Assembly: GCF_003334305.1 (NCBI RefSeq)
Contig: NZ_QOWS01000029.1
Length of the DNA stretch: 43,616 nucleotides
Origin: Escherichia coli
GTDB lineage: Bacteria; Pseudomonadota; Gammaproteobacteria; Enterobacterales; Enterobacteriaceae
Reading direction: 5' to 3' (one strand)
A model generated the notes under the pieces. That model did not search any database. It was not told the DNA's origin and was given only the letters and a program-made list of their open reading frames with translations. The translations under genes were made by a program, and so were the position numbers. This document shows, piece after piece, positions 43,000 through 43,616 of the stretch (position 1 is the stretch's first letter; the number at the start of each line of letters is the position of its first letter).

Positions 43000-43616
43000 T
43001 TAATTACTCCCTTGCCTGATAATTGTAACTCCATTCCCTTTAGCTTTGGGATTATATTTTAGATAGGTGTTATTTGGTGTTCCCAAGTAACTACTGTATT
43101 CTTTTTTTCCCATTCCATTCATATAAGAATTCGTTAAATCTTTGCTTGAAAAATTTAGACTATCATAAACATCATTTTCTTTTGTTACTTTATTTCCTTT
43201 ATCGTCAGAGTAAAAACCGTGAGTGTGATAATCGCCTACTCTCTCTGAACCTTCAGGGCATTTTATATTTCGCAAGTCTACACTATCATTATCATTTGAA
43301 CTTATCGGATTCATGGGTAAATATTCACCTTGCTTCTTACATATTAGTCCACCATATTCTTTATTCTCGTTAATTGATTCTCCATTACACATTGCCAATG
43401 CAAATATTCCAATATCATCTATATTTTTTGATTTAAATTCATATAATCCTAATGGATCCATGCTATTCACCGGGCTCAGCGGATATGTATACAGGTTCCA
43501 TCCCCCCTTCAGCCCAATCGGATCCTGAGTGATATACCGCCCCTGCAGCGGGTCATAATAGCGGTGGCGGTTGTAATACAGGCCGGACTCCTCATCATAC
43601 TGCTGCCCCGGCAGCC
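43000..43616 (-). CDS. Rhs-family protein, 3' end only: end of YD-repeat core plus variable C-terminal toxin domain; 5' part lies outside the window
   Basis: Minus-strand translation from the window edge reads [57 protein letters not shown], the conserved Rhs core terminus with the PxxxxDPxGL demarcation, followed by an AT-rich 150-aa tail ending at 43000. Confidence 0.8.

Follow-up and report, generated by a model that had tools for sequence, protein, structure and literature searches.

The toxin domain Tox-JAB-2, listed in Pfam as DUF4329 (PF14220), was defined by Zhang, de Souza, Anantharaman, Iyer and Aravind in 2012 (PMC3482391), who described a deaminase-like/JAB fold with conserved E, H[ST]H, S and D residues, a tie to RHS repeats and to type VI secretion (T6SS), and Imm-NTF2-2 as its immunity family in Escherichia coli, and who proposed a nuclease activity by analogy with RadC. 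Later surveys of T6SS effectors in E. coli and Salmonella call DUF4329 an 'RNase', citing Ma et al. 2017 (Environ Microbiol); as that paper is relayed in reviews, only Rhs-CT1, CT3 and CT5 were tested and CT5-CT8 are 'putative' RNases, and in those accounts the label of DUF4329 goes back to a bioinformatic clan. According to a 2024 preprint, neither the activity nor the substrate of Rhs-Tox-JAB-2 is known, and in the literature we found no paper testing Tox-JAB-2/DUF4329 activity. Here we examine a domain of this family at the end of a 43,616-nucleotide stretch of the E. coli chromosome (contig NZ_QOWS01000029.1; the whole stretch is referred to as the window), where the 3′ end of an rhs gene encodes a C-terminal toxin tip and is followed by dsORF-f3, its putative immunity gene. 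The explanation that we favor, with a probability of roughly one half, is that the tip is an Rhs-delivered JAMM zinc amidohydrolase or peptidase that acts in the periplasm or cell envelope and is neutralized by exported dsORF-f3.

The minus-strand translation from 43614 to 43000 comprises 204 codons and a stop, with 57 core residues encoded by 43614-43444, followed by a 147-residue tip encoded by 43443-43003 (YEFKSK...IIRQGSN). In Rhs proteins the DPxGL boundary is the site at which the C-terminal toxin is released by autoproteolysis, a cleavage role that is established for Rhs/Tc proteins. Residues 1-57 match the last part of the NCBIfam model RHS_core (E 4e-31, profile positions 1205-1261 of 1261) as well as TIGR03696 Rhs_assc_core (E 1.8e-20; 73.2 bits, cutoff 32.5), and the GC content, about 0.45 in the piece that encodes the core and between 0.44 and 0.565 in the met genes, is 0.275-0.355 across 42700-43400 and 0.28-0.36 in the DNA of the tip, against about 0.5 around it. 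A sequence-only reading of this DNA had described an Rhs core end followed by a variable toxin domain, compositionally distinct and AT-rich, and both descriptions are borne out. The rhs open reading frame (ORF) is cut by the window edge; strain 55989 has the identical locus, in which the ORF is intact, lies between rpmE and yiiX, and has 1394 codons (PGAP label 'rhsC'), and its 1394-residue product scores 2652.8 bits against RHS_core (NF041261; cutoff 2000), with YD repeats outside the window and a DUF6531 match (E 3.4e-17); the tip makes up residues 1248-1394 of this product.

The tip itself matches Pfam DUF4329 at an E value of 1.2e-15 (58 bits, model positions 6-108 of 116), and public databases name the protein as DUF4329 domain-containing. 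By this profile match the tip is a member of Tox-JAB-2/DUF4329, and thus of a family catalogued in 2012, and is not a new effector family. The sequence-only reading, which could not assign the domain and thought that it might have an undescribed effector activity, is therefore partly supported: the Rhs toxin tip and its metal site were read correctly, and the family was already known. The metal site that it had proposed, GDYHTHG (43236-43216, minus strand), is well placed: in an alignment of 49 DUF4329 homologs, gathered in two rounds and many of them 25-40% identical to the query (the lowest about 25%), the columns E29, G32, Y72, H73, H75, G76, S99 and D102 do not vary, and at least 90% of the sequences keep T74. 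H73, H75 and D102 are the predicted zinc ligands, the last of them in the acidic/Ser motif FSSKD (43152-43138, minus strand), and by alignment the tip carries a complete JAMM zinc-hydrolase site made up of E29, H73, H75, S99 and D102 (signature E...HxH...SxxD). Structure prediction, which the sequence-only reading had suggested, gives an AlphaFold2 model with a mean predicted local distance difference test score (pLDDT) of 95.2 and a predicted JAB/MPN fold; the closest matches in a fold search are eukaryotic and archaeal JAMM deubiquitinases, and the best structural matches are peptidases. A sequence search against all PDB chains returned only a chance match (E 0.18), with no solved nuclease among the matches, indicating that the tip has no solved homolog.

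Table 1. Coordinates of the Rhs tip, its putative immunity gene and the adjoining insertion element in the window.
Feature	Coordinates	Strand	Remarks
End of Rhs core, 57 codons cut by the window edge	43444..43616	-	DPIGLKGG...NSMDPLGL; RHS_core and TIGR03696 matches
Toxin domain, 147 residues and stop	43000..43443	-	Tox-JAB-2/DUF4329; predicted JAB/MPN (JAMM) fold
E29 codon (NKEYGG)	43357..43359	-	Predicted JAMM general-base glutamate; invariant in 49 homologs
H73-T74-H75 codons (YHTHG)	43219..43227	-	Two predicted zinc ligands; fits Tox-JAB-2 signature H[ST]H
S99-S-K-D102 codons	43138..43149	-	JAMM SxxD; predicted third zinc ligand Asp, and Ser; S99 and D102 invariant in 49 homologs
dsORF-f3	42676..42998	-	Putative cognate immunity gene; starts 1 nt after the toxin stop; frameshifted/pseudogene allele in the window
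N-terminal segment of dsORF-f3, MKAIQCCYFLALVSSHLMAG	42939..42998	-	Predicted Sec signal peptide; basic residue and hydrophobic stretch
T8 homopolymer, -1 frameshift site of dsORF-f3	42795..42802	-	Alignment with E24377A, O157 SS52 and APEC37; intact form T9 or TAT7
Degenerate IS1-family element	41857..42620		Bounds the Rhs locus on the yiiX side; context, outside the toxin system

Where the tip acts is suggested by its partner and by its cysteines. All of the enterobacterial immunity genes examined encode a predicted signal peptide, the calls here and below being made by a hydropathy and charge heuristic with inspection; they include a Salmonella ORF of 100 residues adjoining a DUF4329 tip and beginning MKFLIFIFMVCTVCNA, and two genes of Scandinavium, an Imm-NTF2-2 gene and a 99-residue gene, that follow two different DUF4329 tips. 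Within the tip, C35 (43339-43341) and C62 (43258-43260) occur together in 14 of the 49 homologs and are both missing from 33, with two homologs having C62 only and none C35 only (Fisher p 1.8e-10, a value that ignores phylogeny), and the pair recurs in distant members. This suggests that C35 and C62 form a disulfide in a subset of DUF4329 domains that includes the window toxin, which would fit an oxidizing compartment, and periplasmic T6SS effectors that depend on DsbA are reported in an earlier study (PMC5792426). One homolog is a PAAR-DUF4329 fusion adjoining ClpV and VgrG genes, and another (P0067) has its own Sec-type leader. Together, the exported immunity genes and the covarying cysteine pair favor an extracytoplasmic site of action for the window tip.

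The intact form of dsORF-f3, found in E24377A, encodes 107 amino acids in 324 nt, as opposed to 323 nt in the window; in 55989 it is annotated as 'RHS element protein dsORF-f3, frameshifted' and is followed by an IS1 transposase. No NCBIfam model matches it, nor does any Pfam model even at E<=10, and a HMMER scan of 1.84 billion representatives recovered, besides fragments, only five diverged relatives with 28-52% identity. All six proteins share GGGG, Y87, Y89 and C98, and in all six, as in locus L017, a basic residue is followed at the N-terminus by a hydrophobic stretch that is not conserved in sequence, MRNVLFFIVLLTVYEA being a further example. Two of the relatives could be traced to contigs, and each is encoded directly downstream of a DUF4329 tip. 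The AlphaFold2 model of dsORF-f3 shows a detached, low-confidence helix at residues 3-19, and the fold, modeled at a pLDDT of only 70.7, resembles those of cystatin, NTF2, PepSY and colicin M immunity proteins. We also considered whether dsORF-f3 is by sequence an Imm-NTF2-2 protein (PF15631), and this is ruled out by the lack of a Pfam match and by hhalign, which found no relationship between the dsORF-f3 family and Imm-NTF2-2-like or other DUF4329-associated immunity proteins (A4 against A5, probability 0.2%).

Several observations weigh against a periplasmic toxin delivered from this locus. In a first, hand-picked set, each of the 16 genes that come directly after a DUF4329 toxin encoded a signal peptide, a lipobox or a transmembrane segment at the N-terminus; the set included Imm-NTF2-2 genes and, in a ClpV-CHAP-VgrG-PAAR_DUF4329 cluster, a gene for a probable lipoprotein, provided that its start is shifted upstream so as to overlap the stop codon of the toxin. 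But this sample proved unrepresentative: when 47 DUF4329 loci were collected by scanning species-representative genomes with an eight-sequence alignment, 25 had such a clear export signal, four were ambiguous, 11 had none (L022, L023, L025, L026, L027, L033, L035, L039, L043, L044 and L045, from other phyla), and seven lacked a plausible immunity gene. Universal export is thereby overturned, with an exported share of about 63-73% among the roughly 40 loci with a plausible downstream gene, and because 11 of these neighbors have no export signal a purely periplasmic target fails for the DUF4329 family as a whole. Some of the signal-less neighbors are homologous to exported ones. For the Salmonella Rhs-DUF4329 proteins an earlier study gives 'No' under transmembrane segment or signal peptide for the ORFs that it designated as immunity (PMC10469887), in contrast to the adjoining 100-residue Salmonella ORF described above. 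Neither vgrG nor eagR adjoins the rhs locus, whose neighbors are rpmE upstream and IS1 and yiiX downstream, so that the rhs gene is an orphan ('neighbourless') one; the N-terminus of the 55989 protein matches the Pfam PAAR_motif only weakly (E 0.2, residues 2-20), and an earlier study places the 55989-type protein among the PAAR-Rhs proteins (PMC7216683). Finally, at least 41% of carriers have a frameshift in the immunity gene, which would be odd for an actively deployed toxin.

With these points in the balance, we hold with moderate confidence that the tip is a periplasm-acting zinc hydrolase. It would be released from the Rhs shell in a neighboring cell, presumably after delivery by the T6SS, and would act as a zinc-dependent amidohydrolase or peptidase in the periplasm or cell envelope, not as a cytoplasmic RNase, where dsORF-f3, an exported small protein with a putative cystatin/NTF2-like fold, would neutralize it. 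The most plausible class of substrate would be an amide or isopeptide bond of the envelope, such as those in peptidoglycan stem or cross-link peptides or the link between Lpp and peptidoglycan. A broader statement can be put forward only tentatively, namely that Tox-JAB-2/DUF4329 toxins, at least those borne by enterobacterial Rhs proteins, are periplasmic JAMM zinc peptidases that cut such an envelope bond and are blocked by exported cystatin/NTF2-like inhibitors. If it is true, these would be the first JAMM-fold antibacterial cell-wall effectors and the 'RNase' annotation of the T6SS surveys would be overturned, many annotated effectors would be mislabeled, and the fold of ubiquitin-type isopeptidases would gain a role in the bacterial envelope. 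The tip sequence is ordinary and widespread; its value may lie in the mismatch between the 'RNase' label and the mostly exported immunity genes and apparent disulfide.

The survey labels and the RadC analogy would instead make the tip a nuclease or RNase acting in the cytoplasm. We think this unlikely, since a cytoplasmic toxin would escape an immunity protein that is exported, as every enterobacterial one examined is predicted to be, and the covarying cysteines, with the disulfide that they suggest, speak against it as well. The structural matches point to peptidases, the sole link to a nuclease is fold similarity to RadC, and as far as the published accounts of Ma et al. extend, the label derives from the bioinformatic clan, with no supporting experiment in the literature checked; it is probably wrong for the DUF4329 subfamily to which the window tip belongs. 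It is also conceivable that the tip is a deubiquitinase-like effector directed not at bacteria but at ubiquitin or ubiquitin-like conjugates of a eukaryotic host, given that the closest folds are JAMM deubiquitinases of eukaryotes and archaea, that homologs are present in giant viruses and phages, and that many carriers are pathogens. We regard this as very improbable, because the tip is tightly coupled to a downstream immunity-type gene with covarying families, the residues of the ubiquitin-tail tunnel have been lost (Zhang et al., PMC3482391), and the DUF4329 family is found in soil and aquatic bacteria that have no animal host.

A different kind of doubt concerns whether the locus is still in use, or is instead a decaying relic whose toxin is not deployed in the carrier strains and whose two genes are drifting toward loss. 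The Rhs-tip locus, which is missing from E. coli K-12, is carried by 2170 of 5426 complete E. coli genomes (40%) at 98-100% identity, and we have examined the state of dsORF-f3 in these carriers by exact matches to 81-82-nt probes. The T8 allele of the window, in which the frame ends after 78 codons (42762-42764) and the conserved C-terminal half is lost because T8 replaces T9, is present in 579 genomes, and an independent frameshift in an A-run, that of O157 (A7 to A6), in 307; the intact T9 and TAT7 alleles account for 802 and 283, and other alleles for about 199. Thus two independent one-base homopolymer deletions have arisen in different E. coli lineages (42795-42816 on the minus strand; around 6195-6215 in L002, L003 and L004, the first of which is E24377A) and together affect at least 886 of the 2170 carriers, and the toxin gene can stay intact where dsORF-f3 is frameshifted, as in 55989. 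Such breakage of the immunity gene, the splitting of rhs by ISEc1 in APEC37, the degenerate IS1 and frameshifted yiiX alongside, and the missing vgrG and eagR all lean toward decay. Against this, the 1394-codon ORF of 55989 is intact with a complete catalytic motif, the locus is maintained at high identity in so large a share of genomes, and at least 1085 carriers retain an intact immunity allele, and we consider general decay doubtful. It would in any case be compatible with a periplasmic JAMM hydrolase, as it concerns present use and not the function of the domain. In the window strain the toxin-immunity pair may no longer be fully functional because the one-base deletion in the T-run breaks the immunity gene, and the recurrence of these frameshifts makes one ask how the killing of kin is avoided by strains in which the toxin gene is intact but the immunity gene is broken.

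The genes of the window run in the order metL, metB, metJ, yiiX, IS1-family element and the 3′ end of rhs. E. coli 55989, IAI1, O104:H4 and numerous further finished genomes share positions 42600-43616 with 100% identity, and the 1017-base query has matches covering at least 80% of its length in 2161 genomes, well outside what chance would give. The IS1-family element has 26-nt inverted repeats (41854-41879 and 42598-42623) that are 88% complementary, an InsA of diverged appearance and a broken insB region; an IS1 family transposase is annotated at the same position in 55989, E24377A, O157 and APEC37, and since this holds for all four strains inspected the insertion is old. The gene yiiX (41162-41769, plus strand), which encodes a permuted papain-like peptidoglycan peptidase, appears as two overlapping ORFs in the window strain, is annotated as frameshifted in 55989, and is intact in E24377A and O157. 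E24377A has an IS621 between yiiX and metJ (L002 8078-9061) that is absent from the window strain.

Some further observations on the family are recorded here. A 2.2-kb contig labeled 'MAG: Lachnospiraceae bacterium' (metagenome-assembled genome; L016, SFGN01000258.1) has a tip-immunity gene pair that shows 100% identity to that of E. coli, and because of this identity it is probably E. coli DNA that was mis-binned. In Scandinavium sp. (L010 1255-4001) successive DUF4329 tips, one at a full Rhs end and one an orphan, have unrelated exported immunity proteins and form a small same-family toxin array. In a Burkholderiaceae MAG (L039 2501-3613) the ORF continues beyond DUF4329 for about 240 Gly/Ala-rich residues with the look of a glycine zipper or membrane segment, and the immunity homolog downstream is without a signal peptide. 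Neither the tip nor dsORF-f3 could be placed in a PHROGs family, and a tblastn search with the PAAR-DUF4329 homolog P0036 of 50,697 phage records gave no match. A BFVD fold search returned only weak JAB-fold viral proteins, among them p25 of Xanthomonas phage Xop411 (L063 7340-7711), whose reverse-strand gene is inside the tail module and outside the lysis cassette, and which for that reason yields no clue to a substrate. The N-terminus of this protein is hydrophobic and its SxxD is replaced by ANAD; it may be secreted and possibly altered.

The window tip resembles Tox-JAB-2 in its direct profile match, in the signature E, H[ST]H, S and D, in its post-RHS placement and in having a small immunity gene downstream, with no structural difference, and departs from the system of Zhang et al. 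in that dsORF-f3 lies outside Imm-NTF2-2, the family paired with E. coli Tox-JAB-2. Its O157 ortholog, already reported in print as DUF4329 and as proteasome-lid-like, occupies the same locus (rpmE-rhs-dsORF-f3-IS1-yiiX-metJ) and its DNA is about 98.5% identical across the immunity region, but its immunity frameshift is in an A-run and that of the window in a T-run. Imm-NTF2-2 (PF15631), which we observed after Tox-JAB-2 tips in Scandinavium, Omnitrophica and a JGI metagenome contig, is like dsORF-f3 a small exported alpha+beta protein, and the low-confidence dsORF-f3 model suggests a cystatin/NTF2-like topology; the conserved residues are Y and W in the former, in contrast to GGGG, Y87, Y89 and C98 in the latter.

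Comparison with other JAB-fold proteins separates the tip from them in several respects. With RadC, a proposed nuclease, no sequence relationship was detected, and RadC is cytoplasmic with no exported immunity partner. The JAMM/MPN+ isopeptidases (BRCC36, Rpn11, AMSH/Sst2 and archaeal JAMM1, and the bacterial Cap3 and BilC) are 10-17% identical to the tip, in which the spacing from HxH to SxxD is 23 residues and is shorter in some DUF4329 homologs; the tip family lacks the ubiquitin-tail tunnel (Zhang et al., PMC3482391), and the tip is a toxin-delivered domain with an exported inhibitor. In this last respect it resembles the periplasmic T6SS effectors that attack peptidoglycan, including the Tae/Tai amidases, Tlde1 and the metallopeptidase effectors. 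These have folds unrelated to that of the tip, namely papain/NlpC-P60, YkuD and zincin folds, and for the tip an activity on peptidoglycan is putative, but they share with it an immunity protein that bears a signal peptide and is encoded immediately downstream, and a possible disulfide.
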